61,276 nt of DNA from an uncultured Candidatus Saccharibacteria bacterium (GCA_964451675.1 CAYVIL010000001.1:1-61276); one strand, 5' to 3'. Counted from the first letter of the stretch, positions 4,462-57,671 are shown. Notes: generated from the sequence alone by a model not told the origin. Program-made: numbers and translations.

Positions 4462-5250
4462 TTAAACTAACTCCTTATATAAATTAGATAACTTCTCTAT
4501 CTCTTCGTGAGTCCGTGTTTCTCCCACAGCTTCCAAACAGGCAAAAGCAACTGGTATCTGTCCATAGATATCGGCGGTTTGCTCATTAGCTACCAAAGCA
4601 TCCAAAAGAATCTGGCGCTTGGTAAAGTCGCTTGATTTCCAGCTGTCACTCCACCTTGTTTGTTCTGAAGAAACAGAAAGTATTTGATCTTCACCCCACA
4701 GACCCTGCAGTGTTTTTTGCAACAAATCAGAATTAGGAACAGCTAAATTCTTAACCGAGTTAACAACTATAGCTATAAGATTGCTAATAGCTGCAAACTC
4801 ATCCGTCATAATAAGCACAGAACCAGACTTAACCTCATGCTCCCTTAACCATTTTAGCTTTTCACTGTGTGACAGTGTACTTAACAAACTAGCGTCGGCA
4901 AATCGTGTTCCTTGCCCATCTATAACTAAGTAGTAAGGCTTGTCCAACGTATTGTAAACCGACAAACCGTAGTAACCTGCTCTTTTCAACTCTACTGGAA
5001 ATGACCCATCTATATACCTTTTATTCCCTCTAAAATAGGCCACTGCTCGATCACAACCAGGAAAAAAACCAGATAAAGGTCCTGTTGCTATTATTAATGT
5101 ATTCGACCTATTATTACGATCTTTTAAATCAGCAGATATTTTTAATGCAAAACCTAAACCACCCACGTAAGGTTCTAAATCAGCGTGCAGCTTCGGTTCT
5201 GCTAATTTAGTAGCTAGATCCACATACAAAAATCTCTTTTTATTATCCAC
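4462..5250 (-). CDS. Stand-alone aldehyde:ferredoxin oxidoreductase N-terminal (AFOR_N)-like domain protein
   Basis: FLYVDL..., GGLGFALKI, LIIATGPLSG and ELKRAGYYGLSVYN..KPYYLVIDGQGTRFADASLL run parallel to the N-domain of tungsten AORs. There is no CxxCxxxC cluster or pterin domain. I place the start at GTG 5250, because a perfect TGtTATAAT lies 10 nt upstream. The ORF-track ATG at 5340 abuts the upstream terminator T-tract. Confidence 0.65.
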   Translation of the reverse strand: MDNKKRFLYVDLATKLAEPKLHADLEPYVGGLGFALKISADLKDRNNRSNTLIIATGPLSGFFPGCDRAVAYFRGNKRYIDGSFPVELKRAGYYGLSVYNTLDKPYYLVIDGQGTRFADASLLSTLSHSEKLKWLREHEVKSGSVLIMTDEFAAISNLIAIVVNSVKNLAVPNSDLLQKTLQGLWGEDQILSVSSEQTRWSDSWKSSDFTKRQILLDALVANEQTADIYGQIPVAFACLEAVGETRTHEEIEKLSNLYKELV

Positions 5251-5260
5251 AGCAGGGGTA

Positions 5261-5269
5261 ATTATAACA
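5261..5269 (-). promoter_or_regulatory. Consensus extended -10 (TGtTATAAT) 10 nt upstream of GTG 5250
   Basis: The minus strand reads TGTTATAAT-tacccctgct-GTG. Confidence 0.55.
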
Positions 5270-5292
5270 TGGGAGGTGGGACATGGGAGGTG
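5267..5292. repeat. 12-nt direct repeat acatgggaggtg x2 (5267..5278 and 5281..5292) over the AFOR_N-like promoter
   Basis: Two exact copies are separated by gg. On the minus strand they cover the TGn of the -10 and the -35 position. Confidence 0.6.
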
Positions 5293-5354
5293 AGAAACAC
5301 CCAGCCAAGGAAAGCAAAGAGCTGAGCAACTGAAAAACATAAAAACAATAAGTT

Positions 5355-5399: not shown

Positions 5400-5780
5400 C
5401 TAAGTAGACTCCTCCTTTTGGAGCAGACGCTGGTAGATTGCCCACGCCACAGGGTGAAGCCCGTTGGGTAATCTACATTTGATCGCTGTTTCTGCTGCAG
5501 AAAAGAAAACTGCATGCTGACCTTTTACAGAAGCGCGTATCTTTTCAAGGTCCCTGTCTCTGGAATTACCAATACCCAAAAGTAAACTCTGCAAAGGTGT
5601 GCGAGGCGAAGAAAGTTTCTCCATCCACACATATTTTTCTGCCAGCTCATCCAAAGAAGCACGGCTTGTTCTGCAAGTTACTGAGACATCCCCATCACTA
5701 TCAACAGCTAATATAGAATCCTGCAAACTACCCATACCTGCCAAAACCTGGACAACATCCTCCGGACCTTTTATCAGCAT
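5400..5780 (-). CDS. Cassette protein C (126 aa), unknown function
   Basis: GGAGG (5788..5792) lies 7 nt upstream of the ATG, and the ORF overlaps protein B by 7 nt. I recognise no family motif. The N-terminal VLAGMGSLQDSILAVDSDGDV is only vaguely Roadblock/LC7-like. Confidence 0.6.
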   Translation of the reverse strand: MLIKGPEDVVQVLAGMGSLQDSILAVDSDGDVSVTCRTSRASLDELAEKYVWMEKLSSPRTPLQSLLLGIGNSRDRDLEKIRASVKGQHAVFFSAAETAIKCRLPNGLHPVAWAIYQRLLQKEEST

Positions 5781-6181
5781 AACACAACCTCCTGAAGGCT
5801 AAGTGCCACTCTCCTTGCAATAGCTAAAGCAGATAACCATTCGCGGCAAATTGTAAGGTCTGGACAATGATACTGCCTAATTGTTTCCTCATCCTTAAAT
5901 TCCAAACCTACTACCACAGTAATTTCCCTGGTAAGTTCAAATACCTCAGCCCAAGTTATCGATCCTTTACCTATTCTGTTTTGTGCAGTATGCAAACTTC
6001 TCGGGTTACCGTAAATAAGAGCTAAATCAAACTCTTCTTGCAAAAGCATCTTTCTTAGTTCAGAAAGATCAGCAACTCGAGTTACAGCTATATTTAGATT
6101 TGTGAGTTCGCCCTCGCGCGCGTCAGGCTCAGAACTTTTATGAACAGTAACCGGCAGATAGATTACTTTACCTCTCCACAT
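5774..6181 (-). CDS. Cassette protein B (135 aa), unknown function
   Basis: GGAGG (6188..6192) lies 6 nt upstream of the ATG, and the ORF overlaps protein A by 14 nt. It has an alternating beta/alpha-looking pattern and no recognisable motif. Confidence 0.6.
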   Translation of the reverse strand: MWRGKVIYLPVTVHKSSEPDAREGELTNLNIAVTRVADLSELRKMLLQEEFDLALIYGNPRSLHTAQNRIGKGSITWAEVFELTREITVVVGLEFKDEETIRQYHCPDLTICREWLSALAIARRVALSLQEVVLC

Positions 6182-6554
6182 TCGCCACCTCCACTGCTTC
6201 TTCCGGCAAAGTCGGTATTCCAGCTTCGCGCCATTTGTCCATAATCTGTACTGTCAAATTCCTAATCCGCCGCGCTTCTTCGGGATTAAAAGAATCAGGA
6301 ATCCGAGCAATTGCAATAAACGTCAGGGTTGCATCAAACCCTTTTTCAATGCGAATTGCTGCTGGCCGATAATCACTTAAACCTACCCGCCATTCAAGGG
6401 AATTACCGCGCATATACGTCCGTACCATGCCTGGAGTTGGTGCACAGCAGGGATAATCCCTGTCCCACTGGTAACCGTTTCTGTACCAAACCAACCAAAT
6501 CTGGTCGAGAACTTTCTGCGACAAGTTATTTATAGTAAGTGCGCCTTCAACCAT
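6168..6554 (-). CDS. Cassette protein A (128 aa), unknown function, Trp-rich
   Basis: GGAGG (6561..6565) lies 6 nt upstream of ATG 6554. The ORF-track start at 6557 is a TTG one codon earlier. No recognisable motif. Confidence 0.6.
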   Translation of the reverse strand: MVEGALTINNLSQKVLDQIWLVWYRNGYQWDRDYPCCAPTPGMVRTYMRGNSLEWRVGLSDYRPAAIRIEKGFDATLTFIAIARIPDSFNPEEARRIRNLTVQIMDKWREAGIPTLPEEAVEVANVER

Positions 6555-6603
6555 CAATCTCCTCCTTTGCTTATCTGTAAGACCTGCTTATCCGGGTTAA
6601 AAG

Positions 6604-8696: not shown

Positions 8697-9134
8697 CTAT
8701 TTTACTTTAACTTTTGCTGGCCGTAGAACCTTGTCTCCCAACATATAGCCTTTTTCAACTACTTCCGTCACTTTTTCATCACCGCCAGGCTCTTGTTCCT
8801 CCTCAACTCCCTCCATCTTAATAGGGTTAAAGTCCTTCCCCAAAGCGTCAATCTCTGTAACACCTTCTGACTGTAGCACTTTGCGGAACTTCTTTACAAT
8901 ATTCGTAACACCACCATCAACTCCGGATGCAACCGCTCTTTCTAAATCATCGAGAAGCGGAAGAACTTTCAACAAAATAACCTCATTCGCATACTTAGCA
9001 AAATCAGCGCGTTCCTTTTTAACCCTTCTTTCAAGATTACGGTAGTCAGCAACTGCCCGTTTCCAACTGTTCTCCAATTCCTGCACACGGTCTTCCAACT
9101 TATTGATCTGGTCATTTAACTCTTGTTCAGTCAT
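8697..9134 (-). CDS. grpE: Nucleotide exchange factor GrpE (short, 145 aa)
   Basis: Coiled-coil N-terminus with ADYRNLERRVKKE, and C-terminal GYMLGDKVLRPAKVKV. It lies between hrcA and dnaK. Confidence 0.85.
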   Translation of the reverse strand: MTEQELNDQINKLEDRVQELENSWKRAVADYRNLERRVKKERADFAKYANEVILLKVLPLLDDLERAVASGVDGGVTNIVKKFRKVLQSEGVTEIDALGKDFNPIKMEGVEEEQEPGGDEKVTEVVEKGYMLGDKVLRPAKVKVK

Positions 9135-9143
9135 AAAAAATGA

Positions 9144-9173
9144 TTAGCCCTAGCAAGTCAAGCTCAGTGCTAA
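9144..9173. promoter_or_regulatory. Degenerate CIRCE-like inverted repeat upstream of grpE
   Basis: TTAGCCCTA-N12-CAGTGCTAA compared with the consensus TTAGCACTC-N9-GAGTGCTAA. The half-sites match 7/9 and 8/9, but the spacer is 12 nt rather than 9. Confidence 0.3.
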
Positions 9174-9181
9174 TCTATATG

Positions 9182-9907
9182 TTACCAAGCGCGTCCTATT
9201 TCGTTCAGTAAGTTTCCTACGTAACGTGCTAAAGGAATAACTTTACGGTACGGCAGCCTACTCGGCCCTACTACAGAAATGCGCCCCTCTCTCTTACCAA
9301 CCTCAAAAGGAGAAGAAACAATCGAACAGGTTGCTAAACCAGGAAAACCAATTTCGTCACCTATCAGCACGTGAACCTCTTTATCGCCAATCGCCTTACT
9401 AAAAATTTCTTGGAACACTTCAGGACGGTCCAAGAGTGACAGAACAGCTCTAGTAACGTCAATATCAAAAAACTCAGGATGATCAAGAATGTTAGCTGCA
9501 CCCGCGGACGTTAAAATCCCGTCTTTAGTAACAACCACACCTAAAACATTACTACCCTCGGCTAAAGCTAATGATGCATTACGTAGCAACCTCTCCAACT
9601 CAAAGCGATCTTGCCACAAACGTTGCTTTATAGCAACCTCTTCTAAAACAGGTAATTCTTTTTCCTCCATTAAAGAGTTTATATAGTGACGGTAAGCCAT
9701 AGGGGTTGGCTCTCTTCCAGCAGAAGCGTGGGGTTTTTCCAAAAGCCCTTTCCTGGAAAGCTCCACCATCTCATTACGAATAGTAGCGGAGGAAACGTCA
9801 GACAAATACTGATCAACAATCTTTTTGGAACTAACCGGCTCCGGGCTTTCCCCATATTCCTCAATAATTGCTTTCAATAGAGCTGTTTGGCGCTGAGTAA
9901 GATCCAT
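9182..9907 (-). CDS. hrcA: Heat-inducible transcription repressor HrcA (short, 241 aa)
   Basis: LTQRQTALLKAIIEEYGESPEPVSSKKI...SSATIRNEMVELSRKGLLEKPHASAGREPT is the typical HrcA winged-helix N-terminus. Confidence 0.85.
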   Translation of the reverse strand: MDLTQRQTALLKAIIEEYGESPEPVSSKKIVDQYLSDVSSATIRNEMVELSRKGLLEKPHASAGREPTPMAYRHYINSLMEEKELPVLEEVAIKQRLWQDRFELERLLRNASLALAEGSNVLGVVVTKDGILTSAGAANILDHPEFFDIDVTRAVLSLLDRPEVFQEIFSKAIGDKEVHVLIGDEIGFPGLATCSIVSSPFEVGKREGRISVVGPSRLPYRKVIPLARYVGNLLNEIGRAW

Positions 9908-26259: not shown

Positions 26260-27216
26260 TTATATCCGCATCCTTTCAGCCTCAACCGTCTCTGTAAAAA
26301 CCTCTACCAAACCTGTTTTTTTCAGTACCTTAATCACTACATTTAAGAAACAAACTGCCATAAATACAATTAAAGAAGCACTAAGTCTTAGAATTAGAAA
26401 AAGAGATGTTGCAAAGATCATTGGGAAAAACCTCAGATAGGGTGCAAGTACGCTATTCAACTCATCTTCCAACTGCGACCGCAGTTCCGAAATACCCAAC
26501 TGCAGACCTCCATTTGCTTGCTGTTGACTCAAAAAGTCACGCAAAGATTCAGGAGAAACACTTCTCCCACCTAACAAGAAAAGAATATGTTCCGGTATCC
26601 TCTCTCCGACGTTCTCTTCTCTGCTCTCCTGGACAAGCCAATCAAGATTTTGCTGTGGATCGCCTTCTGTAGGCAGTTGCAAACCCCGACCAAAGAGAGA
26701 AAGCATTCTTTCTATTATAGTTTCAAACGCACGCTCTGGTAGATAAACTCTTTCCGGCACTCGTGGAACATAAAAGAAATAAAAGCTAACACACAAAAGA
26801 GCTGAAAAAAGGATAAATGTAAATTTCAAAAAAGAGCTATATATCTCACCAATTTTAATCTTTGTAAATAACGTCAATCTACTTTTAAGCCGCAACATTG
26901 CAAAACCCTGCAATAAGGAAAACAGGAATACAGTTGCAATAAACGGCAAAATTTGCGGCACTACTAGAAAAAGCGGAAGACAGCCAACAGCAGCCATCGC
27001 AAAAATAAGAAAGGGTTTTCCAAAAAAAGTAGCAACTAGACAGAATAGAGAAAGATAACAAAATAACGAAAGCAAAAAAATTATAAGAGAAAACACAGTC
27101 GCTTGCGAAGTTAAAGGGTACTGCTGCAAAACGCTACCAACTATCCACCAAATAAGTGTAGAGGAAAAAGGCAAAAGTACCGCAACCGATATTTTAAAAA
27201 TAATTCTCTTATCCAT
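26260..27216 (-). CDS. Polytopic membrane protein of unknown function; paralogue of 1268..2200
   Basis: Same length class and topology as the 1268..2200 protein. Shared landmarks are WW near the N-terminus, LFTK-IKIGEIY, VPERVYLP, APYLRFFP and C-terminal VEAE. Confidence 0.7.
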   Translation of the reverse strand: MDKRIIFKISVAVLLPFSSTLIWWIVGSVLQQYPLTSQATVFSLIIFLLSLFCYLSLFCLVATFFGKPFLIFAMAAVGCLPLFLVVPQILPFIATVFLFSLLQGFAMLRLKSRLTLFTKIKIGEIYSSFLKFTFILFSALLCVSFYFFYVPRVPERVYLPERAFETIIERMLSLFGRGLQLPTEGDPQQNLDWLVQESREENVGERIPEHILFLLGGRSVSPESLRDFLSQQQANGGLQLGISELRSQLEDELNSVLAPYLRFFPMIFATSLFLILRLSASLIVFMAVCFLNVVIKVLKKTGLVEVFTETVEAERMRI

Positions 27217-34275: not shown

Positions 34276-34929
34276 ATGAATTTCAGAAACAAAATCATCC
34301 CCACCGCGACATTTGCTATTGCTGTATATATTTTAGCTTCACAATTGATAATACCGCTTTGGCAGTACAGAGCTCAACAAAACCTAGTCAATCCTGTTGC
34401 CGGTGCTTATACAACTTTCTGGGACCAACGCAGGGATTTGCTAATCTTAGAGGAGCCGCAAACACCGCCTCCTCCATTTTTCTACCTTTCAATACCTAAA
34501 ATTGAACTGGAGGAAGTTCCGGTAGAAACCAACAGCACAAAAGCACCGGACCAAAACCTCATCCATATTAAAGGAACTGCATTACCGGGCTCCGGCCAAA
34601 CCTCTGCTTCACAACTAAAAATACCAATAGTTGTTTCCGGTCACTCAGTATCACCTCTTTTTTTTAACTCCAAAGATCCTAGAACTTACTTCACTGGCTT
34701 ACCAAAACTACAGACTGGAGACGAGATAGAAGTTAACTTCCAAAACAAAAACTATAAATATAGCGTTGAGAAAAAAGAGGTTGTAAAACCAAAAGACCTC
34801 TGGGAAGTAATTAGCAAAGAAGCAGCTCTGAACCAAACAGAGCTAGTGCTATTTACTTGTGTACCACCTGGACTACGCACTAATCGTTTAATTATTTTTG
34901 CCCAGGCTTTAGAAAACCAGCAAAATTAA
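34276..34929 (+). CDS. Sortase family transpeptidase
   Basis: N-terminal TM, YLSIPKIELEEVPV, His in VVSGHS, Cys in LVLFTCVPPG and Arg in TNRLII give the H-C-R catalytic triad in the right order. Confidence 0.8.
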   Translation: MNFRNKIIPTATFAIAVYILASQLIIPLWQYRAQQNLVNPVAGAYTTFWDQRRDLLILEEPQTPPPPFFYLSIPKIELEEVPVETNSTKAPDQNLIHIKGTALPGSGQTSASQLKIPIVVSGHSVSPLFFNSKDPRTYFTGLPKLQTGDEIEVNFQNKNYKYSVEKKEVVKPKDLWEVISKEAALNQTELVLFTCVPPGLRTNRLIIFAQALENQQN

Positions 34930-43063: not shown

Positions 43064-43230
43064 ATGGATTCATCTTGTATTTTAGCAGGTTATTGCAACA
43101 TCCTTCCAGCAGCAGTGCTGCCCACCCTGTACAAATCAGTAAAAAACTGCTTCTTTCAACAATGTATTAAACCTAAATCACAATCCTCTTGAGAAAAGGT
43201 CATATATTCAACTAAAATTAAGACATAAAC

Positions 43231-44886
43231 ATGCCTACAGAGAAACACCCCGTTCCCCAGCACGTTATGGGAATCGAATTCAAACTCGTTGGTGACTTGA
43301 ATGTACGGCAATTTTTCTTCCTACTAGGTGGGGGGGTACTAATATTTTTCCTACTCCGCTCTGGAGCACCCTTCTACTTCAAATGGCCCTCGGCGTTGTT
43401 CTTCGCTATGTGCACTCTTATTGCTGCATTTGTACCACTAGAAGGACGGCGTGCAGATCAGTGGATACGGAGTTTTTTTAATTCTGTATTTTCCCCAACA
43501 CAACGAATATGGAAACGATCAGTAAGCGCTCCCACATTCATCAGTGACGAATTTATAAATTCATTAAGAAAAGAAGCCTACTCAGTCGCCCCCCAGAACG
43601 AAAGGTGGCGGTTGAAAAGATTTATAGAAGAATTTGAGGAAAAAGAAGAAAAAACAAAGCTAGACTTAAAAATAGATCAGTTTCTGAATAATTTAAACTT
43701 TGATCAGCCGCTGCCGGAAGGAGTCGCACCGAAAATAAGCAAAAAAATTGAAATTCCCAAACGCGAAAGACCAGAAGAAGTCACAGCAGAAAAAGCAGAG
43801 CAAGAAAGACCAGAAGTAACAAAACCAGTGGAAAAAGAACCATCAGCAAAAAAGAGAAAGGTAACTTTGGAAGAATCACCTACATTGGCAGCAGAAGTAA
43901 ACTGGTCATCAGAAAATGTAATAACCATACCTGTCGCAGGAGCCAAACAGAAAAGGTACGTAACCACAGTAAGCAACGTTAGACCAGGAAGAAAGCTAAA
44001 AAACCTACCGCGCATACAAGGAGAAATAGTAATGCCAGTAAAAGGAAAAAGAGTAATTATGCCTCAGGGGGAAGAACCGGATGATATTGAAGGATTTAAA
44101 ATCAAAGAAGACCGCACAGAAGAGCTCGCCACACCACTTCACAAAGGGGAGGAACAGCCATCACAACCGGAAGTAAAAACAGAAAAGGCAGTGGATACAT
44201 TGCCTTACGCACCAGAAGAAAAGGAAGTGGAGGAAGATAAAGAGCCAATTACAGAAAGAATAGTTAGCGAAAAGACAAAAAAAACAGCGCAAGGTCTGCA
44301 AGAAAAAATCAATCAGCTAACAAGACAAATCAGCATACTTGGAAAACGGCTAAAGCAAGCCCAAACAGGTGGGAAAGATAGCCAAATGGCAGACCTATAC
44401 CAGAAACAAATAAAACAGTTAGAAGAAGAAAAGGACAGCCTTTTTAAAAAAGGAGGCAAAAAAATACCACAAAAGGAAGATGAGGAAAAGGAAAAGGAAA
44501 AGGAAAAGGAAAAACAAGAACAGGAAATTGCCAGAAGCATCTCTTTGAAAAAGAAAAAAAAACCGAGTAAGAAACCTGCAAAAGCTAAAAAAGAAGAGAA
44601 AGCCGTTGAGTACCGCGGACTTGGTGCAGAACCCAATATCATCCACGGCGTTGTAAGAGATAAACAAGGAAGTGTTGTATCAAATGCTGTTATAATTGTA
44701 GAAGATGAGGAAGGTAATCCTGTTAGAGCACTCAAAACAGATCCATTAGGTCATTTCGCCATTACAACTAAACTCCCCAATGGAAAATACAAGATAAAGA
44801 CAAGTAGAGATGATTTAAAGTTTGGTATAATGGAAACTCAGTTAAAAGGGGAGACGCCTCCCCCACTGAAGATAATTGCTAAATAA
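43231..44886 (+). CDS. PrgI/VirB3-like membrane protein fused to a long Lys/Glu-rich linker and a C-terminal CarboxypepD_reg-like beta-sandwich
   Basis: The N-terminus GIEFKLVGDLNVRQFFFLLGGGVLIFF...FVPLEGRRADQWIRSFF follows the PrgI-family layout with 2 TM helices. The C-terminus IHGVVRDKQGSVVSNAVIIVEDEEGNPVRALKTDPLGHFAITTKLPNGKYKIK is a carboxypeptidase-regulatory-like fold signature. Confidence 0.7.
   Translation: MPTEKHPVPQHVMGIEFKLVGDLNVRQFFFLLGGGVLIFFLLRSGAPFYFKWPSALFFAMCTLIAAFVPLEGRRADQWIRSFFNSVFSPTQRIWKRSVSAPTFISDEFINSLRKEAYSVAPQNERWRLKRFIEEFEEKEEKTKLDLKIDQFLNNLNFDQPLPEGVAPKISKKIEIPKRERPEEVTAEKAEQERPEVTKPVEKEPSAKKRKVTLEESPTLAAEVNWSSENVITIPVAGAKQKRYVTTVSNVRPGRKLKNLPRIQGEIVMPVKGKRVIMPQGEEPDDIEGFKIKEDRTEELATPLHKGEEQPSQPEVKTEKAVDTLPYAPEEKEVEEDKEPITERIVSEKTKKTAQGLQEKINQLTRQISILGKRLKQAQTGGKDSQMADLYQKQIKQLEEEKDSLFKKGGKKIPQKEDEEKEKEKEKEKQEQEIARSISLKKKKKPSKKPAKAKKEEKAVEYRGLGAEPNIIHGVVRDKQGSVVSNAVIIVEDEEGNPVRALKTDPLGHFAITTKLPNGKYKIKTSRDDLKFGIMETQLKGETPPPLKIIAK
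44484..44513 (+). repeat. In-frame hexanucleotide microsatellite (GGAAAA)x5 encoding (EK)n
   Basis: Five exact tandem units were read directly inside the linker of the PrgI-like ORF. Confidence 0.9.
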
Positions 44887-44888
44887 AA

Positions 44889-45575
44889 ATGCCAGAAACA
44901 AAAGCCAGCACCCAAGACCATCTTGACATTGTAGATATCCGAGATAGCTTACTAATCCTGAAAGGCGGGGTAGTAGCTCTTGTAGTTCAGTGTAGCGCTA
45001 TAAACTTTGACCTGCTATCGGAAGGCGAGCAAGACGCTATGATTGGAGCATATGCATCATTACTAAATTCCCTAGCTTTCCCACTCCAAGTGATTGTACG
45101 CTCTAAAAAGGTCGATATTTCAAATTACATCGACACATTACGAGCACTTGAGCTAAAACAGAAAAATAAGCACCTAAAAAAAAGGATTGAGGCCTACTTG
45201 CAGTTTGTAGAAAATTTAGTTTCTAAAAAAGAAGTTCTGAACAAAAGCTTCTACATTGTTATCCGCTATGGTGAACCTCTATTCGTCAAAGAAAATAATT
45301 TAATTCAAAACCTCTTAGGTCAATCAGAGAAAAAACCTAAAGAGATAAAAAATAAGGCAAACTTAATAGAAAAAGCGAACCAGGACCTTGGACCCCGACT
45401 GGACCATCTAATAGATCAATTAGGCAAAATAGGCATTGAGTCCCACCAACTATCTACGCAGGAACTAGTAACATTATTCTATGAAATATACAATCCAAGC
45501 TCAGCTTACGAGGAAAGATTGCAACTAGGAATAGAGGAATATACAGCACCAATTGTAGAACCGGCAATCGAATAA
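44889..45575 (+). CDS. Soluble 228-aa protein of the T4SS-like module, possibly a detached VirB4 N-terminal domain
   Basis: Starts 2 nt after the PrgI-like gene and ends 5 nt before virB4. LDIVDIRDSLLILKGGVVALVVQCSAINFDLLSEGEQDAMIGAYASLLNSLAFPLQVIVRSKKVD resembles, from memory, the extreme N-terminus of Gram-positive VirB4/PrgJ-type ATPases. Confidence 0.55.
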   Translation: MPETKASTQDHLDIVDIRDSLLILKGGVVALVVQCSAINFDLLSEGEQDAMIGAYASLLNSLAFPLQVIVRSKKVDISNYIDTLRALELKQKNKHLKKRIEAYLQFVENLVSKKEVLNKSFYIVIRYGEPLFVKENNLIQNLLGQSEKKPKEIKNKANLIEKANQDLGPRLDHLIDQLGKIGIESHQLSTQELVTLFYEIYNPSSAYEERLQLGIEEYTAPIVEPAIE

Positions 45576-45580
45576 AAAAC

Positions 45581-47542
45581 ATGAAACTACCCTTAAATAA
45601 CTTACTAAATAAATCAAGCGAAGAGACTCAGGTAGAACAAGAAAGAAATGACAGCGTCTCTCCAGCTCAGCAGCTTGGACAGGGTATGAATAAAATCCAA
45701 GATGTTATAGCACCCTCATCCATAGAAGCAGACTTCAATCACATCAGAATGGGCCAAACTTATTTTAGGACATTGTTCATAACCGGATACCCCCGATTTG
45801 TCGGTGCAAACTGGCTAGCACCTGTTATCAATTTCGAACACACCCTCACCCTATCCATGTTTTACTACCCCGTTTCCTCCAACAAAGTATTGAATGAACT
45901 AAAAAGAAAACTCGCAGAAATGGAAGCTACAGTGCGTACTGATCTAGCCCGTGGGAAACTAGTTGATCCAGCTGTTCAAGCTGCCTTGGAAGATGCCCAG
46001 GAGCTTCAAGACCAATTGGTAAAAGGGGTCGAACGCTTTTTCCAATTCGGGTTTTACATTACCATTTCTGCCAACTCGGAAAAAGAGTTAGACGCAGTAA
46101 CCTCCCGATTAGAATCTACCCTAGGATCTCTGATGCTTATATCCAAACAGTGCACCCTCCAAATGGAAGATGGTTTCCAAACTACAACACCCACAGGTTT
46201 AGATAAGCTGAACATAGTTCGCAATATGGATACAACCTCCCTAGCAAGCACCTTCCCATTTACATCTTCCGAGCTCACCGCTAACGAGGGAATCCTTTAT
46301 GGCATTAATGAACACAACGGTTCTTTAATTGTCTTTGATCGATTTACACTAGAAAACGCCAACGCAGTTGTCTTCGGTAAATCCGGTTCTGGTAAATCTT
46401 TTGCCATCAAATTAGAAGTACTACGATCTTTATTATTCGGAACAGAGGTTATTGTTATCGACCCTGAAAACGAATACTATCCTCTGGCAGAAGCAGTTGG
46501 CGGAGATGTAATTGACTTCACCATTCACGGCGAAACCAGTATTAACCCATTCGACCTTTCTGGTGTGGCTGGTGAAGATGAGGACGAACTAAGCTTGAAA
46601 ATACTTTCCTTACACGCCCTCTTCGGTATTATTTTTGAAGATCTTTCAAACACGGAATCAGCAATTTTAGACCGGGCACTTATCGCCACCTACCGCATGA
46701 AGGGTATAACCAGAGATCCTGAAACACACGACAACGAACCTCCCATTATGGAAGACTTGTACAAAGTACTTTTAGGTATGCCAGAGACGGAAGCTCGGGG
46801 ACTTGCTGAAAGATTGGAAAGATTTGTCAAGGGGTCCTTAGCAGGAATATTTGATAAACCTTCTAATGTTAATATCAAAAACACCTTTACTGTTTTCTCT
46901 GTCCGTAACCTAGAAGATGCTTTAAGACCAATTGCTATGTTTATAATTCTCGATTTTATTTGGAACAAGGTTAAAAAAGAAACTAAAAAGAGAATCCTCC
47001 TTGTTGACGAAGCCTGGTATCTTATTGCACATCCAGACTCCGCTATGTTTCTATATTCAATAGCTAAGAGAGGACGCAAATACTATCTAGGACTTACAAC
47101 AATCACTCAAGATGTCGACGACTTCTTAAAAAGTGATTACGGGCGTGCTATTGTTACCAACTCATCAATACAGCTGCTGATGAAACAACACCCTGCAGCA
47201 ATTGAGCAGGTTGCGGACGTATTTAATCTGTCTGAAGGTGAAAAAAGCCTACTCCTATCAGCAGACATTGGAGAAGGTTTATTCTTTGCAGGTAACAGCC
47301 ACGTAGCAATGCAGGTAGTAGCCTCAGAAGAGGAGTACCAACTAGTAACAACAAAACCTGCTGAAGTTATTGAACGTGAAAAGCGCACTGAGAGTGGGAA
47401 GTCAGAAAAAACAGAGGACCACGAAGAAGAAGAAGAAGAAGAGAAAAAAGCAGTAAATGAAAGTACAGAGCATAAATCTCCGCGAGCCGGTTTTCAGTTC
47501 AATAAAGAAACAGGCAAGTGGGAAGAAACAGAAAAGCAATAA
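45581..47542 (+). CDS. virB4: VirB4/TrbE/PrgJ-family type IV secretion ATPase (AAA_10/DUF87-like)
   Basis: YFRTLFITGYPRFVGANWLAPVI and Walker A VVFGKSGSGKSF are present. VIVIDPENEY, Walker B RILLVDEAWYL and GRKYYLGLTTITQD also match, and the C-terminal tail is acidic. Confidence 0.85.
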   Translation: MKLPLNNLLNKSSEETQVEQERNDSVSPAQQLGQGMNKIQDVIAPSSIEADFNHIRMGQTYFRTLFITGYPRFVGANWLAPVINFEHTLTLSMFYYPVSSNKVLNELKRKLAEMEATVRTDLARGKLVDPAVQAALEDAQELQDQLVKGVERFFQFGFYITISANSEKELDAVTSRLESTLGSLMLISKQCTLQMEDGFQTTTPTGLDKLNIVRNMDTTSLASTFPFTSSELTANEGILYGINEHNGSLIVFDRFTLENANAVVFGKSGSGKSFAIKLEVLRSLLFGTEVIVIDPENEYYPLAEAVGGDVIDFTIHGETSINPFDLSGVAGEDEDELSLKILSLHALFGIIFEDLSNTESAILDRALIATYRMKGITRDPETHDNEPPIMEDLYKVLLGMPETEARGLAERLERFVKGSLAGIFDKPSNVNIKNTFTVFSVRNLEDALRPIAMFIILDFIWNKVKKETKKRILLVDEAWYLIAHPDSAMFLYSIAKRGRKYYLGLTTITQDVDDFLKSDYGRAIVTNSSIQLLMKQHPAAIEQVADVFNLSEGEKSLLLSADIGEGLFFAGNSHVAMQVVASEEEYQLVTTKPAEVIEREKRTESGKSEKTEDHEEEEEEEKKAVNESTEHKSPRAGFQFNKETGKWEETEKQ

Positions 47543-47688
47543 GTGCATCGAAAGCATAAACCAATATAAAAAATAACGTCGTATACTACACTAGGTAACT
47601 ACAAAAAACCTCTAAAACAATACAATTTTGGAACTAGTGCTAACCAAGTGTCATATAAAGGCTGTACTTGCCTATCATTATCTCTTTC

Positions 47689-47697
47689 TGGTATCAT
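47689..47697 (+). promoter_or_regulatory. Extended -10 (TGgTATCAT) 9 nt upstream of the rpsO ATG; TTGCCT -35 lies 18 nt upstream
   Basis: Read directly; no SD. Confidence 0.5.
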
Positions 47698-47706
47698 TGG
47701 TCTGTT

Positions 47707-47976
47707 ATGGCATTAGAAAAGAAAGAAAAAAGCGATATTATTGATGAATTTAAAATCCACAAGGGTGACACAGGTTCACCGGAAATACAGATCGCGTTAC
47801 TAGCTAAGAAAATAGAAAAGCTCACCGATCATTTAAAAGAGCATAAGAAGGACCACCATTCGCGCCGTGGATTATTAAAAACTGTTAATAAACGACGGCG
47901 ACTACTTATGTATCTTAGAAACAAAGACGAAGATAGGTACCAGAAAGTGATTGAAAAAATCGGAATAGACTTTTAG
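47707..47976 (+). CDS. rpsO: 30S ribosomal protein S15
   Basis: [71 protein letters not shown] place the start at ATG 47707; the track start at 47668 is a TTG extension. Confidence 0.92.
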
Positions 47977-48046
47977 AATAGATAAAGTTAACTCCAGAAA
48001 TTCCTACAACTTCTGCTGGTTTACAGAAAAAACTTTCTAAACAAAA

Positions 48047-50212
48047 ATGGATCAAATTATTAAAAAGACAGAACTTTCAGGACGTGAACTCTCACTAAAA
48101 ACAGGACAGATAGCACCACAGGCAAACGGCTCAGTAATTGCACAATGGGGCGACACTGTAGTACTTGCTACTGCTACTATAGATGAACCTCGCGAAGGCA
48201 TTGATTTCTTCCCTTTGCGTGTAGATTATATTGAACGTCTTTATGCTGGCGGCATTATTAAAGGTTCCCGCTTTGTAAAAAGGGAACGCGCGCCTCGTGA
48301 CGAAATTATCTTGGCTGACAGAATGATCGATCGAGCTATCCGCCCTCTTTTTGCAGAAGGGTTGCGTCACGATGTTCAAATCATCGTTCTTCCCGTTTCC
48401 GTAGACCGGGGTTCAGACCCAGACTTACTTTCATTAATTGCTACCTCTGCCGCACTAGCTATTTCAGATATTCCTTGGGACGGACCAGTAGGAGCTGCCA
48501 GAATGGGCCTGGTGCAAGAAGGAGAAACTGAAAAAATAGTGCTAAATCCGCCGATTAAGGATCTGGAAACAAGCAAGATGGATATTATTGTTGCTGGGTC
48601 TGAAGAAAAAGTAATTATGCTAGATGCAGAAGCAGAAGGAATTCCAGACGATCTAATTGCTGACAGCATAGAAAAAGCCCAAAGTAGTATAAAACAGACA
48701 ATCCAGTTAATTGAGGAACTTCAAAGTGTTGCAGGAAAAGAAAAAATCATCCTAGCAGAGGAAGAGAAAGACAAAGCTAAAGAAAAAGCAAGAGAGGAAA
48801 TAAAAAAACTCACAAAAAAGGACTTTATACCAAAGATTGTAGAGGCAGGCAAGATTGTGGATGAGAAAAAGGATGAATTCCAAGAAATTCTCCACGAGAA
48901 ATTCGAAGGCAAACTTTCCAAATCAGAAATGGACAAGGAAGTCGAAGAAGCCACCAAAAAAGAAATACGCCGCCTAATAATAAATCAGGATAAACGCTTA
49001 GATGGGAGAGCAATGGACGAAATCAGACCGCTGACTATGGAAACAGGCCTATTTCCCCGAACACACGGTTCTGCCCTTTTCCAAAGAGGAAAAACCCAAG
49101 TAATAAACATCACAACACTCGGATCAACATCACTTGAGCAACTAATCGAGGGTATGCTAGGCGAAAAAACAAAAAGATACATGCACCACTACTACTTCCC
49201 TCCTTTTAGCACAGGACAAGTTTGGCCACTGAGGTCACCTAAAAGAAGAGAGGTAGGGCATGGTGCTTTAGCAGAAAAAGCGCTAAAACCTGTTATACCT
49301 GATGAAGAGGAATTTCCTTACGCAATGCGCCTAGTAAGTGAAGTAACATCCTCTGCTGGTTCAACTTCTATGGCAGCCACATGCGCCTCGTCACTTTCAT
49401 TAATGGATGCGGGTGTCCCAATAAAAAAACCGGTCGCAGGTATAGCTATGGGGCTAATTACCGAGAAGGATAAAAAATACAAAATATTAACAGACATGCA
49501 TGCTATTGAAGACTTTTACGGAGACATGGACCTTAAAATAACAGGAACTGAAGATGGAATTACCGCAATACAGCTCGATGTAAAAAATCAAGGATTAACA
49601 ATTAAAATTGTCAGGGAAACTTTTCGGCAAGCGCGCGATGCCAGACTAAAAATTTTAAAAGAAATGCAAAAAGCTATTAGCTCTCCGCGCAGAGAGCTGT
49701 CGGAATTTGCACCTAGAATTACTAGAATTAAAATCGACCCATCTAAGATCGGACAAGTTATAGGCAGCGGTGGTAAAGTCATTCGCTCTATCATCGAAGA
49801 AACAGGAGTAGCCATTGATGTGGAAGACGACGGTACAGTACTTATTTCCTCACCAGATCCGGAGCAGGCTGAAAAGGCTAAAAAAATTGTGGAAGAACTA
49901 ACTCACGAAGTTACGGTCGGAGAAATTTACGAAGGAGAGGTTACAAGAGTCGAAAACTTCGGAGCTTTTGTGGAAATTTTACCTGGAAAAGAAGGACTAA
50001 TACCCATAAGCGAGTTAGAACACTACTATGTAAAAGAGGTCGAAGATTCTGTTAAAGTAGGTGATACTGTACGGGTAAAAGTTATAGAAATAGATAATCG
50101 CGGCCGAATAAACCTATCTAAAAAGGCCTTACAAAAAAGCAGCAGCAAGGAAAAAAGGAATAAAGACAAAGGTAAGAAACCTTATTACAGACGGCCGGGT
50201 AATCATAAATAA
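48047..50212 (+). CDS. pnp: Polyribonucleotide nucleotidyltransferase (PNPase)
   Basis: Two RNase PH domains (RLDGR, FPPFSTG, HGALAEKAL), a KH domain (IGQVIGSGGKVIRSI) and an S1 domain (GEIYEGEVTRVENFGAFVE) are present. Confidence 0.95.
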   Translation: MDQIIKKTELSGRELSLKTGQIAPQANGSVIAQWGDTVVLATATIDEPREGIDFFPLRVDYIERLYAGGIIKGSRFVKRERAPRDEIILADRMIDRAIRPLFAEGLRHDVQIIVLPVSVDRGSDPDLLSLIATSAALAISDIPWDGPVGAARMGLVQEGETEKIVLNPPIKDLETSKMDIIVAGSEEKVIMLDAEAEGIPDDLIADSIEKAQSSIKQTIQLIEELQSVAGKEKIILAEEEKDKAKEKAREEIKKLTKKDFIPKIVEAGKIVDEKKDEFQEILHEKFEGKLSKSEMDKEVEEATKKEIRRLIINQDKRLDGRAMDEIRPLTMETGLFPRTHGSALFQRGKTQVINITTLGSTSLEQLIEGMLGEKTKRYMHHYYFPPFSTGQVWPLRSPKRREVGHGALAEKALKPVIPDEEEFPYAMRLVSEVTSSAGSTSMAATCASSLSLMDAGVPIKKPVAGIAMGLITEKDKKYKILTDMHAIEDFYGDMDLKITGTEDGITAIQLDVKNQGLTIKIVRETFRQARDARLKILKEMQKAISSPRRELSEFAPRITRIKIDPSKIGQVIGSGGKVIRSIIEETGVAIDVEDDGTVLISSPDPEQAEKAKKIVEELTHEVTVGEIYEGEVTRVENFGAFVEILPGKEGLIPISELEHYYVKEVEDSVKVGDTVRVKVIEIDNRGRINLSKKALQKSSSKEKRNKDKGKKPYYRRPGNHK

Positions 50213-51179: not shown

Positions 51180-52268
51180 ATGAAAACCAGAGAAGAAGCA
51201 ATTCTATTTGAAGAAATTAGTGTTTTACTTGAGAAAGTAGAAAAAGCAGACATACCTCCGGAATTGAAAACCAAAACCATCCGTATGGTAAACCGCCTGC
51301 AAAGAATGGCCCAATTCGGTAGCTACAGTACAGAATATGAAAATATATCAGCTTATGTGGACTGGGTAACAGGGTTGCCATGGACTAAAAGAACAGATGA
51401 TAACCTTAACCTAGAACAAGCTGAAAAAACCCTGGGATCCAGTCACTACGGGATGGAAGCAGTTAAAACCAGAATTTTGGAATACATATCAGTACTAAAC
51501 CTCACAGAAGAGCGCAGAAAAGGAACAATGCAAATCAGCACCGGACCGCTAGCAGCCACACGTTCGACTGTTATCTGTTTCCTAGGATTGCCTGGAACAG
51601 GAAAAACATCAGTGTCCTATTCCATAGCTGATGCTCTTGATAGAGAATTTGTACGTATTGCCATGGGCGGTATGGGCAACGCTAACCAACTGCGGGGAGA
51701 GCCGCGTTCTGTACCGGCAGCCGAACCCGGACTTGTAATTAAAGGCCTTAGACAAGCACAAAGCAGAAACCCCGTTATTTTGTTGGACGAAATTGATCGC
51801 GTAGCCGAAAATGCTCAAGCAGGTATCACTGGTGTACTATTAGAACTCTTGGATCCCGAGCAAAACAGTGCGTTTACAGACCACTATATAAATTTCCCGT
51901 TCAATCTCTCCGAAGTCTTATTTTTAATAACATGCAACAGCACCCGCAATATTGCCAACGCTGTTCTAGATAGACTAGAGGTAATTGAAATGCAACCTTA
52001 TAGTGATGAGGAGAAAACCATAATTGGAAAAGAATACCTTTTACCACGAGCTTTAAAAACTTGCGGTTTATCTCCTAACCAAATTATTATTGATGACAAA
52101 CTTTGGTCCCTAATTATCCGACCCTTAGGCTACGATGCCGGTATAAGGACCCTTGACAGAACTATTAATACTATCTGCCGTAGAGTAGCAAGGAAAGTTG
52201 TGGAATCTGGTAATGAAAATGAAGTATTTGAAATCACAAAAGACAATATAAAAGAATTCATTGTATAA
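51180..52268 (+). CDS. Lon-like AAA+ ATPase module without the LON N-domain or protease domain
   Basis: YVDWVTGLPWTKRT, HYGMEAVKTRILEYISV, Walker A GLPGTGKTS, VRIAMGGMGNANQLRGEPRS, Walker B ILLDEIDRV and DAGIRTLDRTINTICRR run parallel to Lon residues of about 230-600. The ORF stops where the Ser-Lys protease domain should begin. Confidence 0.7.
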   Translation: MKTREEAILFEEISVLLEKVEKADIPPELKTKTIRMVNRLQRMAQFGSYSTEYENISAYVDWVTGLPWTKRTDDNLNLEQAEKTLGSSHYGMEAVKTRILEYISVLNLTEERRKGTMQISTGPLAATRSTVICFLGLPGTGKTSVSYSIADALDREFVRIAMGGMGNANQLRGEPRSVPAAEPGLVIKGLRQAQSRNPVILLDEIDRVAENAQAGITGVLLELLDPEQNSAFTDHYINFPFNLSEVLFLITCNSTRNIANAVLDRLEVIEMQPYSDEEKTIIGKEYLLPRALKTCGLSPNQIIIDDKLWSLIIRPLGYDAGIRTLDRTINTICRRVARKVVESGNENEVFEITKDNIKEFIV

Positions 52269-55376: not shown

Positions 55377-57671
55377 ATGGCTAGAAAACGTAGATCGCGG
55401 CGGCGAACAATTAAATTCAAACTAAAAAAGGACACTGCTCAATCAATAACCGCTACCACCCTCTTATTTCTCGGAGTTATCTCTCTGTTGTCTTTTTTTG
55501 GACAGGCTGTTGGAATTGGTGTCAAAAATGTATTAAGCATCTTTTTTGGTTGGCTAGCTATTCTAATACCTCTTATCTTTATACTAACCGGCTTAGTATT
55601 ACTAAGACGTATAAAATGGTCTTTTGTTAAACTAAGAACACTACTTGGGCTTATATCAGCTACCCTGCTCACTGCAGCAACTATCCACTTCTTTTTCCCC
55701 CAAAGCACTGCTTACGAACAGGGTTCTATGGGAGAAGGGGGAGGTTTAGCAGGATACTTTATCCAAAGATTCCTAAGACAACATCTTTCTCCACTAGGAG
55801 CAGCAGCAACTTTAATATTTCTCACCTTAACAAGTATCCTCATTTTGTTCAATTCATCTCTAGACGCTGTAATAAAAATCATTAACAGAATAAGTGAGGA
55901 GTTCGCCGCCTTTTATAAACACTATATTAAAAGGAATAAAAATGAGCTAGAAAAGGAAGATGGGGAGAAAGTAAACGAAACAGACGCACAAGAAGAACTG
56001 GATACTACAGAACCTCAATTCATAACGCAGCAGGGTGGAAAATTGGTAACTGAAAAGAAGGAAGAAAAACACGAGGAAAAAGATTTTGCCAAATTTGAAC
56101 TTATAAACATAGTGGGCACAAGGTCATCGGAAAAAACAGAAGAAACAGAAATTAATGTACAGCAATCGGATCAGAACACAACTTCGCAGGACACAGACAA
56201 AACAGAAACAAAAAAGAAAAAGCCTCCCGAATGGAAACAGCCCCCGTTATCACTACTTTCTGAAACACAAGGTGAAGAAGCAGAAAGAGGAGACATTAAA
56301 AAAAACGCTGACCTAATAGAGAAAACTCTCAACGCTTTCGGTGTAGAAGCAAAGGTAGTTGAGGTAAATTTAGGACCCTCAGTCACTCAATACGCCATAG
56401 ACCTAGCAGAAGGCACAAAAGTATCGAAAGTTGTCAGCCTACAAAACAACCTTGCAATGGCCCTAGCAGCTCCTACCGGAATGGTCAGAATAGAAGCACC
56501 TATACCTGGAAAGGCTTTAGTTGGTATTGAAGTACCAAATTATCAAGCTGCCCTAGTTACGCTTAAAGACATAATGACTTCAGATCAGATGCAAAAAGCA
56601 CAAGATAAATTAACAGTAGCTCTGGGACACGATGTGTCCGGTGAACCTGTCATAACAAATATTTCAAAAATGCCTCATGTGTTAATAGCTGGCACAACTG
56701 GTTCCGGTAAATCTGTACTTTTAAACGCCTTTTTATCAACATTACTTTTCCGAAATTCTCCTGAAGACTTGCAATTGCTTCTTATTGACACCAAACGTGT
56801 GGAATTTTCTGCTTACAACGACATGCCTCACCTCCTACACCCTGTAATTGTTGAACCTGAAAAGGTACTTTCCTCGCTTAAATGGGCTGTTGAAGAAATG
56901 GAAAAAAGATACAGAATACTGCAAAAAGAAAAAGTTAAAAATCTAGACAGTTATAACCAGCTGCCTAACGTAGAAAAAATTCCTTATATTTTAATTTTAG
57001 TTGATGAACTAGCAGATTTGATGGGCTACTCACCAAACGAAGTAGAAAAAGCTGTTTGCCGCCTAGCTCAGATGGCCCGCGCTGTAGGCATTCATCTAGT
57101 ACTAGCAACACAAAGACCAAGCACAGAAGTTCTCACAGGGCTAATCAAAGCTAATATCCCTTGCCGCATCGCCTTCCAAGTCGCTTCCCAAATAGATTCC
57201 CGAGTCATTCTAGATACAAGCGGCGCAGAAAAACTAATGGGTAAAGGTGACATGCTCTTTTTACCTCCAGACCGTCCTAAACCATTAAGAATACGCGGAG
57301 TTTACGTATCTGAAAAAGAGTTAGAAAAACTAAGGAACTTCCTAAAAAATAGTGGGCATGATCCTAATTATCAAGCTGAAATTACAGAAACAAAGAGCGA
57401 ATTTACAGACAGTCCTTTTGATAAACCAGAGGATGACAAATTCTACGATGCTGTAGAAGTGGTGTGTAACCACGGGCGCGCATCTGCGTCACTGCTACAA
57501 AGACGTTTGCGTGTCGGTTACGCCCGTGCAGCAAGATTACTAGATGCTATGCATGACAGAGGTATTATTGGACCACACAACGGCTCCAACCCAAGAGAAG
57601 TCCTTATTGATGACCTCTCACAAATCATTAGCAGGGGTGGGGATAACGAACTTGAAAGTCAGAATCTATAA
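55377..57671 (+). CDS. ftsK: DNA translocase FtsK
   Basis: Four or five N-terminal TM helices and a charged linker are followed by the motor domain, with HVLIAGTTGSGKS and LILVDELADLM. The gamma winged-helix ASASLLQRRLRVGYARAARLLDAM is also present. Confidence 0.92.
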   Translation: MARKRRSRRRTIKFKLKKDTAQSITATTLLFLGVISLLSFFGQAVGIGVKNVLSIFFGWLAILIPLIFILTGLVLLRRIKWSFVKLRTLLGLISATLLTAATIHFFFPQSTAYEQGSMGEGGGLAGYFIQRFLRQHLSPLGAAATLIFLTLTSILILFNSSLDAVIKIINRISEEFAAFYKHYIKRNKNELEKEDGEKVNETDAQEELDTTEPQFITQQGGKLVTEKKEEKHEEKDFAKFELINIVGTRSSEKTEETEINVQQSDQNTTSQDTDKTETKKKKPPEWKQPPLSLLSETQGEEAERGDIKKNADLIEKTLNAFGVEAKVVEVNLGPSVTQYAIDLAEGTKVSKVVSLQNNLAMALAAPTGMVRIEAPIPGKALVGIEVPNYQAALVTLKDIMTSDQMQKAQDKLTVALGHDVSGEPVITNISKMPHVLIAGTTGSGKSVLLNAFLSTLLFRNSPEDLQLLLIDTKRVEFSAYNDMPHLLHPVIVEPEKVLSSLKWAVEEMEKRYRILQKEKVKNLDSYNQLPNVEKIPYILILVDELADLMGYSPNEVEKAVCRLAQMARAVGIHLVLATQRPSTEVLTGLIKANIPCRIAFQVASQIDSRVILDTSGAEKLMGKGDMLFLPPDRPKPLRIRGVYVSEKELEKLRNFLKNSGHDPNYQAEITETKSEFTDSPFDKPEDDKFYDAVEVVCNHGRASASLLQRRLRVGYARAARLLDAMHDRGIIGPHNGSNPREVLIDDLSQIISRGGDNELESQNL

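Follow-up and report, generated by a model that had tools for sequence, protein, structure and literature searches.

Do three adjacent genes that lie among housekeeping genes, away from the usual companions of a type IV secretion system (T4SS), encode a machine of their own or one part of a larger machine? The question is raised by positions 43,231 to 47,542 of a contig from an uncultured Candidatus Saccharibacteria bacterium (GCA_964451675.1 CAYVIL010000001.1:1-61276). The window that we analysed is this entire 61,276-bp NCBI contig of a metagenome-assembled genome (MAG), and the contig-wide negative results given below cover these 61 kb. The three open reading frames (ORF1 to ORF3) had been described, in a sequence-only reading, as a minimal, orphan VirB3/VirB4 engine that might serve a lineage-specific surface, uptake or host-contact machine. 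Our analysis suggests, with a probability of about 85%, that the trio is the core (a membrane anchor plus an ATPase motor) of the T4SS already known from Patescibacteria, and thus one further example of that system.

A PrgI-like anchor and a probably split VirB4 ATPase

ORF3 passed the NCBIfam model NF045971 (VirB4-like conjugal transfer ATPase, CD1110 family) with 424 bits against a cut-off of 325. The alignment spanned positions 182-752 of the 752-position model, and about the first 180 positions were missing; in the VirB4_plasma model, which has 894 positions, ORF3 covered positions 272-892. The other VirB4/TraC models remained below their own cut-offs (Mycoplasma-ICE VirB4, 288 bits; F-type TraC, 175 bits; VirB4_CagE, 128 bits; Bacteroidetes TraG, 76 bits), and the ranking of VirB4 models was FATA > F > T > B. 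The Pfam family P-loop_TraG (PF19044) scored 102 bits versus 32 bits for DUF87/HerA, and the C-terminal 360 aa matched the solved structure of a VirB4 C-terminal domain (PDB 4ag5; E = 1.6e-52). The Walker A and Walker B motifs that the sequence-only reading had described as intact are both present in the translation. Because NF045971 was exceeded and 4ag5 was matched, ORF3 is by its profile scores a VirB4 rather than an FtsK/HerA protein, and the VirB4-type label it had received was borne out. The NF045971, PF19044 and 4ag5 scores excluded an FtsK/HerA identity, and the real FtsK of this contig is a separate gene.

ORF2 appears to supply in trans the N-terminal domain by which VirB4 docks to VirB3 and to the membrane. 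ORF2 matched VirB4_plasma positions 129-282 (E 8.7e-10), and taken together with ORF3 (272-892) it covers a nearly contiguous, barely overlapping stretch of one full-length VirB4 model. The exact ORF2 protein has a precomputed Pfam annotation as TraC-like (PF26593); our local Pfam copy gave no match for it. We modelled ORF2 with AlphaFold from 45 homologues, with a mean predicted local distance difference test score (pLDDT) of 72, and searched the PDB with Foldseek. All of the top eight matches were TrwK/VirB4 chains of R388 (prob 0.98, E 7e-3, query TM-score (TMq) 0.41). A PDB sequence-profile search with the TrsD alignment returned nothing at E <= 1, and VirB4 was recovered by the fold search alone. 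From the near-contiguous coverage of one VirB4 model and the R388 fold matches, we conclude that ORF2 is a distant TrsD-like homologue and, on profile and model evidence, the putative split-off N-terminal part of VirB4. TrsD has been described in the literature as just such a part (PMC12102498). The sequence-only reading had treated this 228-aa protein as a soluble partner of unknown kind. Its solubility stands, because the sole hydrophobic stretch is modelled as beta-strands; the unknown kind gives way to a TrsD/TraC-like VirB4 part, on the NCBIfam similarity discussed below, PF26593 and the R388 folds.

This division of VirB4 was also found beyond the Candidate Phyla Radiation (CPR). Plasmids of Pontibacillus, Priestia and Miltoncostaea gave the best non-CPR matches, at 32-38% identity in VirB4, and in these a TrsD-like ORF stands directly 5' of a CD1110-type VirB4. 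Judged from these gene orders, the split is not a CPR invention and is common to the nearest Bacillota and Actinomycetota relatives. One related locus (L004, 9401-11758) encodes a 785-aa VirB4 with an N-terminal extension of 200 aa, and we considered whether it was an unsplit TrsD plus VirB4. This was ruled out, since the extension is N/Q-rich low-complexity sequence with no similarity to ORF2; no TrsD- or PrgI-like gene adjoins this virB4.

ORF1 had been read as a PrgI-family (VirB3-like) protein with two transmembrane (TM) segments. The hairpin was indeed modelled with high confidence, and the N-terminus resembles PrgI at the score given below; the protein is not, however, a small VirB3 but a 551-aa fusion with a linker and a beta-sandwich. 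The linker (aa ~161-465) consists of 18% K and 16% E, and its identity to the closest relative is only 38-53%. At the C-terminus, CarboxypepD_reg matched aa 471-527 with 35.5 bits (Pfam cut-off 32.3), and Foldseek placed the sandwich with the transthyretin-like domain of carboxypeptidases D/N and with CnaB folds (E down to 3e-5). An alignment of 23 ORF1 sequences contained the conserved motifs HPVPQ...FKLxG and VRALKTNxLGxF.

The same sandwich is found apart from PrgI. It is 43-44% identical to the C-terminus of stand-alone proteins of 879-954 aa in two related loci (L007, 7344-9983, 879 aa; L008, 7108-9972, 954 aa), whose genes lie between a short PrgI gene (199-207 aa) and a TrsD-like gene. 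Neither a signal peptide nor a TM segment was detected in these two proteins. We then searched 1.84 billion representative proteins with ORF1 aa 440-551 (E <= 1e-3) and obtained 1,986 matches. Of the best 150, 100 did not exceed 1,000 aa in length, and almost all of them had one copy of the domain, placed at the very C-terminal end. Within this set of 100, at least 45 start with a PrgI-like motif plus hairpin, and at least 14 are soluble proteins that stand alone. In other CPR genomes the stand-alone protein is likewise soluble, 500-950 aa long and encoded between prgI and trsD. By these database matches the PrgI-sandwich fusion is common in this bacterial group, widespread and not special to the window. 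A motif at ORF1 aa 215-275 was compared with the N-terminus of the stand-alone proteins; BLASTP found no match, and a small hidden Markov model (HMM) gave only weak, position-consistent ones (best E 1e-5, 23 sequences), on which we base no claim.

Natural VirB3-VirB4 fusions require that the C-terminus of VirB3 be cytoplasmic. Because such fusions occur (they are mentioned in PMC12102498) and because the stand-alone forms lack export signals, the coiled-coil/sandwich module of ORF1 is by analogy most likely cytoplasmic. The main and supplementary text of the 2025 survey of these systems (PMC12102498) contains no mention of a PrgI-linked sandwich domain.

Relatives, partners and published systems

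VirB4 relatives of ORF3 were abundant, with at least 7,997 at E <= 1e-20; identities and names were taken from the best 120. These were 62-85% identical to ORF3, two close ones at 85% and 72% and the others at 62-71%, and all of those with a named source were Patescibacteria (WWE3, Shapirobacteria, Woesebacteria and "Patescibacteria group"). The VirB4s of non-CPR plasmids reached 38% identity at most. On these identities the VirB4s with which ORF3 groups are those of CPR, not of other phyla.

Searches of species-representative genomes yielded five related loci, three with Patescibacteria-type record titles (L001-L003, including a Dojkabacteria MAG), one unclassified, and one (L005) deposited as an uncultured gammaproteobacterium MAG. 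The order PrgI (plus sandwich), TrsD, VirB4 recurred in L001, L002, L003, L005, L007, L008, L011 and L012, so that the synteny of the three-gene unit held when it was examined across relatives; L009 has PrgI-TrsD at a contig end. The closest relative, L001 (VirB4 ~85-86%), shares the whole stretch between, and including, the Wzy-like and Lon-like genes. Within this block VirB4 has the highest amino acid identity (86%), followed by the Lon-like protein (82%), TrsD (81%), polynucleotide phosphorylase (PNPase) and UbiA (77% each) and S15 (72%), which argues for strong purifying selection on VirB4 and against a decaying remnant. Housekeeping genes alone surround the trio in this contig, as they do in L001, L003 and L012. 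Next to the trio in L005, L007-L009 and L011 are T4SS_pilin (PF18895) genes, genes for polytopic or large unannotated proteins and M23 or CHAP hydrolase genes, and dnaN/dnaA often adjoin these pilin- and hydrolase-flanked loci. Since accessory genes lie beside the trio in some relatives and not in others, the trio is, on this comparison of gene orders, the constant unit, with its accessory genes either adjacent or elsewhere. In the Dojkabacteria MAG (L003) an inserted gene for a NUDIX hydrolase (9109-9642) separates the TrsD-like gene from virB4.

These features agree with a system that has been surveyed across the whole group (PMC12102498, PMC10633639, PMC12857230). VirB4 was reported in 2,417 of 3,035 CPR genomes (~80%), nearly all in one monophyletic clade nested in the mating-pair formation (MPF) class MPF_FATA (Quinonero-Coronel et al. 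2025, PMC12102498). According to the same survey, TrsD is the commonest partner of virB4 (1,664 genes adjoining virB4) and VirB3/PrgI is often adjacent; in Microgenomatia, VirB6 homologues are scarce and VirB3 is often unlinked from virB4. VirB2-like pilins were present in 1,948 assemblies, many not beside virB4, and relaxases were almost absent from CPR; the survey's authors infer co-option for a non-conjugative role. In Southlakia epibionticum the T4SS cluster was essential for epibiotic growth by transposon sequencing, and it has no recognisable coupling protein or relaxase (Wang et al. 2023, PMC10633639). The trio can therefore not be called orphan, as it had been, being the core of a published, phylum-wide system with thousands of VirB4 relatives; nor does lineage-specific describe an order that recurs over many CPR loci and a VirB4 whose relatives extend over WWE3, Shapirobacteria and Woesebacteria. 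The suggestion of a candidate host-contact machine we judge to have been right, and the module is probably host-directed.

Compared with the Patescibacteria T4SS in general (the CPR VirB4 clade, and Southlakia epibionticum SEML1_0006-0019 in particular), the locus shares a chromosomal position with housekeeping flanks, a lack of relaxase (here, in the contig), a VirB4 with adjoining TrsD-like and PrgI/VirB3-like genes, and ORF3 identities of 62-72% to many CPR VirB4s. It differs in that no pilin array, VirB6-like gene or hydrolase gene adjoins the trio, in its place beside rpsO-pnp instead of dnaA/dnaN, and in the fusion of PrgI to a coiled coil and beta-sandwich. The MPF_FATA T4SSs of monoderms (CTn2 with its CD1110-type VirB4, pGO1 with TrsC-TrsD-TrsE, pCF10 with PrgI-PrgJ) share with it the passed CD1110 model, a PrgI-like VirB3 and, in pGO1-type systems, a TrsD-like protein upstream of VirB4. 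In contrast to these conjugative systems, whose VirB4s are 32-38% identical to ORF3, the trio is not on a plasmid or integrated conjugative element (ICE) and has no relaxase, type IV coupling protein (T4CP) or adhesin, ORF2 falls far under the NCBIfam TrsD cut-off, and ORF1 has its additional C-terminal module.

Among the best non-CPR matches, the 898-kb plasmid of Pontibacillus sp. ALD_SL1 (NZ_CP062975.1, 350-361 kb) has the same order of PrgI/TraL-like, TrsD-like and VirB4 genes (VirB4 37.7% and TrsD 31% identical), also with no relaxase annotated within 25 kb. There, however, the cluster is complete, with two T4SS_pilin genes, a 779-aa TrbL/VirB6-like protein and a 1,050-aa NlpC/P60+M23 hydrolase, and the PrgI-like protein has only 116 aa, without a beta-sandwich tail. 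This plasmid locus (L010, 350336-361354), which flagellar genes adjoin, gives a Gram-positive example of a CPR-like gene order with pilins, a kind that reviews deem exceptional. The TrwM/VirB3-TrwK/VirB4 complex of R388 (PDB 7o41, 8rtb) resembles the trio in the best fold matches of ORF2, which are to TrwK, in the P-loop domain of ORF3 and in the VirB3-type hairpin. Unlike the trio, R388 belongs to the conjugative systems of diderms; its VirB4 is unsplit, it has a relaxosome and an outer-membrane core complex, and identities in structural alignments are ~8-14%. The ComB system of H. pylori and the archaeal Ced system (CedB) share a VirB4-family ATPase that operates without a relaxase and are known cases of inward transport; none of their partner genes was found here.

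Partners of the trio were sought throughout the window. Pfam scans of ~47 ORFs across it revealed no relaxase, VirD4/TcpA, VirB6, VirB8, VirB1-type gene or integrase, in keeping with the absence of these companions that had been noted around the operon. With the pilins, VirB6-like proteins and hydrolases of related loci as queries, phmmer found nothing among the window's ORFs, all of which were included down to a length of 40 aa. Nor did tblastn or phmmer return a match in the window, even at E <= 1, when the queries were taken from L005, L007 and L009 and comprised pilins, VirB6-like proteins, M23/CHAP hydrolases and large neighbouring proteins that lack annotation. Because no partner was found there, a complete machine is assumed for this organism rather than seen. 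Two polytopic membrane paralogues of 310 and 318 aa (1268-2200 and 26260-27216, both on the minus strand; 25% identity, E 3e-29, no Pfam family) were considered as VirB6 candidates and discarded, since the VirB6-like proteins encoded at related loci do not resemble them.

Several of these results weigh against the trio being a core of the Patescibacteria T4SS. The N-terminus of ORF1 (aa 7-93) scored 26.2 bits with Pfam PrgI (PF12666), 0.8 under the 27-bit cut-off; aligned homologues lie above it (L003, 42.7 bits; L005, 28.4 bits), and most carry a precomputed PF12666 annotation. ORF2 matched NCBIfam TrsD/TraD (NF041427) at E 1.2e-9 with 38.3 bits versus a cut-off of 200, and so falls outside formal membership of that subfamily, and its structural likeness to VirB4 is specific but weak at the E, TMq and pLDDT values above. 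The presumed place of ORF3 in the CPR clade is read from identity levels and the published tree (PMC12102498). To these points are added the absence of a pilin, VirB6-like, VirB8-like or hydrolase partner anywhere in the window, and the verdict of reviews that the role of CPR T4SSs is "completely unknown", with effector delivery and nucleotide acquisition as candidates (PMC11665869).

The contig around the trio

The coordinates of the features discussed are collected in Table 1. Three close-packed plus-strand genes had been claimed, and the coordinates and junctions read accordingly: TAA-aa-ATG (2 nt) between ORF1 and ORF2, and TAA-aaaac-ATG (5 nt) between ORF2 and ORF3. The promoter-like site upstream is weak evidence, since such sites were no more numerous in the region than in shuffled sequence.

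Table 1. Features of the trio and its contig, with positions counted from the first base of the window
Feature	Position	Strand	Description
ORF1	43231-44886	+	551 aa; PrgI/VirB3-like anchor, charged linker with coiled coil, C-terminal beta-sandwich
ORF1 TM hairpin, aa 25-66	43303..43428	+	AlphaFold helices 25-43 and 48-66, pLDDT ~92; hydropathy peaks 23-41 and 50-68
ORF1 predicted coiled-coil helices, aa 341-436	44251..44538	+	AlphaFold, pLDDT up to 97
ORF1 C-terminal transthyretin-like / CarboxypepD_reg beta-sandwich, aa 470-551	44638..44883	+	pLDDT ~94
ORF2	44889-45575	+	228 aa; TrsD/TraC-like soluble protein, putative split-off N-terminal part of VirB4
ORF3	45581-47542	+	653 aa; VirB4-type ATPase (CD1110 / MPF_FATA-like)
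Walker A, GKSGSGKS, aa 266-273	46376..46399	+	read from the ORF3 translation
Walker B, LLVDEAW, aa 473-479	46997..47017	+	read from the ORF3 translation
Promoter-like site, TTGAGA-18-TAAAAT	43189..43218	+	consensus scan, 10/12 matches; end 12 nt 5' of the ORF1 ATG
virB4-rpsO spacer	47543..47706	+	164 nt; likely rpsO start at ATG 47707
Genuine FtsK, alpha and gamma domains	55377-57671		the contig's only FtsK-family protein (Pfam)

The core-gene surroundings that had been described were confirmed by Pfam. Upstream of the trio are genes for a UbiA-family prenyltransferase and a Wzy-like/TPR protein, and further up for PMT_2 and GT4 glycosyltransferases. Directly 3' of virB4, on the same strand, are rpsO and pnp (47543-50212 with the spacer), an adjacency common only to the closest relative, L001. 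A scan of the plus strand 3' of virB4 found no terminator-like site before rpsO, and transcriptional read-through from virB4 into rpsO-pnp is, from the sequence, possible. The adjacency itself may be coincidental, since only L001 has it too.

Throughout the contig the Pfam scans found housekeeping genes only: GAPDH, LytR, dnaK-grpE-hrcA, UvrD/AddA-type helicases, FemAB, RmuC, DnaJ, MurJ, RuvX, AlaRS, PGK, a sortase, glycosyltransferases, RodZ, YtxH, rpsO-pnp, a Lon-like AAA+ protein, UDG, RNase J, FtsK and SpoIID. The GC content is ~0.40 along the whole contig, and the sole Rfam match in the window is a tRNA-Cys 3.2 kb upstream of the trio. Neither att-like repeats nor a duplicated end of tRNA-Cys around the locus was found in the contig. 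None of the features by which an ICE or conjugative plasmid is recognised (relaxase, T4CP, integrase/recombinase, att repeats) was detected in the contig, and with no repeats, tRNA-Cys duplication or GC shift either, an ICE or plasmid fragment was ruled out. The earlier statements that integrase and flanking repeats are absent, and that the unit is chromosomal and non-conjugative rather than a mobile element, thus agree with the contig's gene content and composition.

Other features of the contig were recorded in passing. ARAGORN reported a "tRNA-???" with a two-base anticodon at 34487-34572 on the minus strand, inside the sortase ORF; it lacks Rfam support and is probably a false positive. 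The Lon-like protein (51180-52268, plus strand, 362 aa) has AAA+ and Lon-lid domains only, without a protease domain, and is 82% conserved in L001. On the minus strand, a 292-aa protein (4462-5340) consists of AFOR_N, the N-terminal domain of aldehyde:ferredoxin oxidoreductase, without catalytic domains. Between it and dnaK, in a slightly GC-richer part of the contig, lie three successive small ORFs (5400-6557, minus strand; 126, 135 and 129 aa), whose ends overlap and which match no family.

A possible mechanism and its rivals

For complex formation, topology, pilus assembly and host-directed function we infer the following mechanism. ORF1 would place its PrgI/VirB3-type hairpin in the membrane with both ends cytoplasmic, and ORF2 would give in trans the N-terminal domain that an unsplit VirB4 has in cis. 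In the structure of the R388 system the N-terminal domain of VirB4 contacts VirB3. ORF3 would contribute the remainder of VirB4, including the P-loop ATPase domain, and the three proteins together would form a membrane-docked VirB4 oligomer. Its hydrolysis of ATP could then drive the building of a channel and a VirB2-like pilus, with the pilin, VirB6-like and cell-wall hydrolase genes expected elsewhere in the genome. The machine would be used for host-cell contact and macromolecule exchange, not for conjugation, and the ORF1 tail of coiled coil and beta-sandwich would be a cytoplasmic accessory or adaptor module.

The trio might instead work autonomously and need neither pilins nor a VirB6-like channel nor a hydrolase; it could, for instance, be a membrane ATPase for some other lineage-specific surface or uptake process. 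Its isolation among housekeeping genes here and in three relatives and the lack of partner genes in 61 kb would fit such a minimal machine, as would the scarcity of VirB6 and the unlinked VirB3 genes of Microgenomatia (PMC12102498). We nevertheless consider it quite improbable, given that homologous trios elsewhere adjoin pilin arrays, polytopic proteins and M23/CHAP hydrolases, that many of the VirB2-like pilins in the 1,948 assemblies lie away from virB4, that a 61-kb contig is less than ~10% of a typical CPR genome, and that no function of VirB4 is known outside T4SSs. Minimal or stripped-down, the terms of the sequence-only reading, therefore go too far for a trio seen in a MAG contig of this length. 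A decaying, non-functional remnant of an ICE, to which the presence of just three T4SS genes and a common integration target (tRNA-Cys) nearby could point, is scarcely credible: the three ORFs are intact and tightly spaced with intact Walker motifs, VirB4 is the best-conserved gene of the block shared with L001, the trio is conserved over thousands of CPR sequences, and the contig has no att-like repeat, tRNA duplication, integrase or compositional shift.

The direction of transport is a separate matter, and here the alternative is compatible with the trio being a Patescibacteria T4SS core. As in ComB and Ced, the machine could power the uptake of host DNA or RNA and not the export of effectors. 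With no relaxase or coupling protein found in the contig, conjugative export is unlikely; nucleotide acquisition is named in reviews as a candidate role (PMC11665869); and a 2026 preprint, which links VirB4 with PNPase-based RNA catabolism, describes how a cultivated member of the phylum feeds on host RNA, possibly with T4SS pili where it touches the host. The succession of virB4 and rpsO-pnp with no detectable terminator between them and the similarity of ORF3 to CedB in NCBIfam (54.8 bits) point the same way. That CedB score is, however, far under the cut-off of 700, and rpsO-pnp is a widespread operon on its own. Its adjacency to virB4 is confined to this locus and L001, the trio lying elsewhere beside dnaN/dnaA or other genes, and there is no direct evidence on substrate direction for any CPR T4SS. 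An importer is thus possible, if rather unlikely in our estimate. A longer shot is that the coiled-coil/sandwich module could be a CPR-specific cytoplasmic subunit docked on VirB4/TrsD, a substrate receptor or adaptor that replaces the coupling protein; a further and weaker possibility is that virB4 might be co-transcribed with rpsO-pnp, coupling host-RNA uptake to phosphorolysis by PNPase.

No T4SS before that of Patescibacteria had been shown to be essential for the growth of its own carrier bacterium, and one added instance leaves the picture of this system unchanged. What the comparison sharpens is that PrgI, TrsD and VirB4 stay together even where the accessory genes are elsewhere, and that the VirB4 split is common to the nearest Bacillota and Actinomycetota relatives. 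The coiled-coil/beta-sandwich module linked to PrgI is the one feature that the consulted literature does not describe, the rest of the locus being the known system. This conserved, apparently cytoplasmic sandwich module, which travels with PrgI, is a concrete candidate for a subunit, one that lends itself to study by structure and genetics in cultivable Saccharibacteria.

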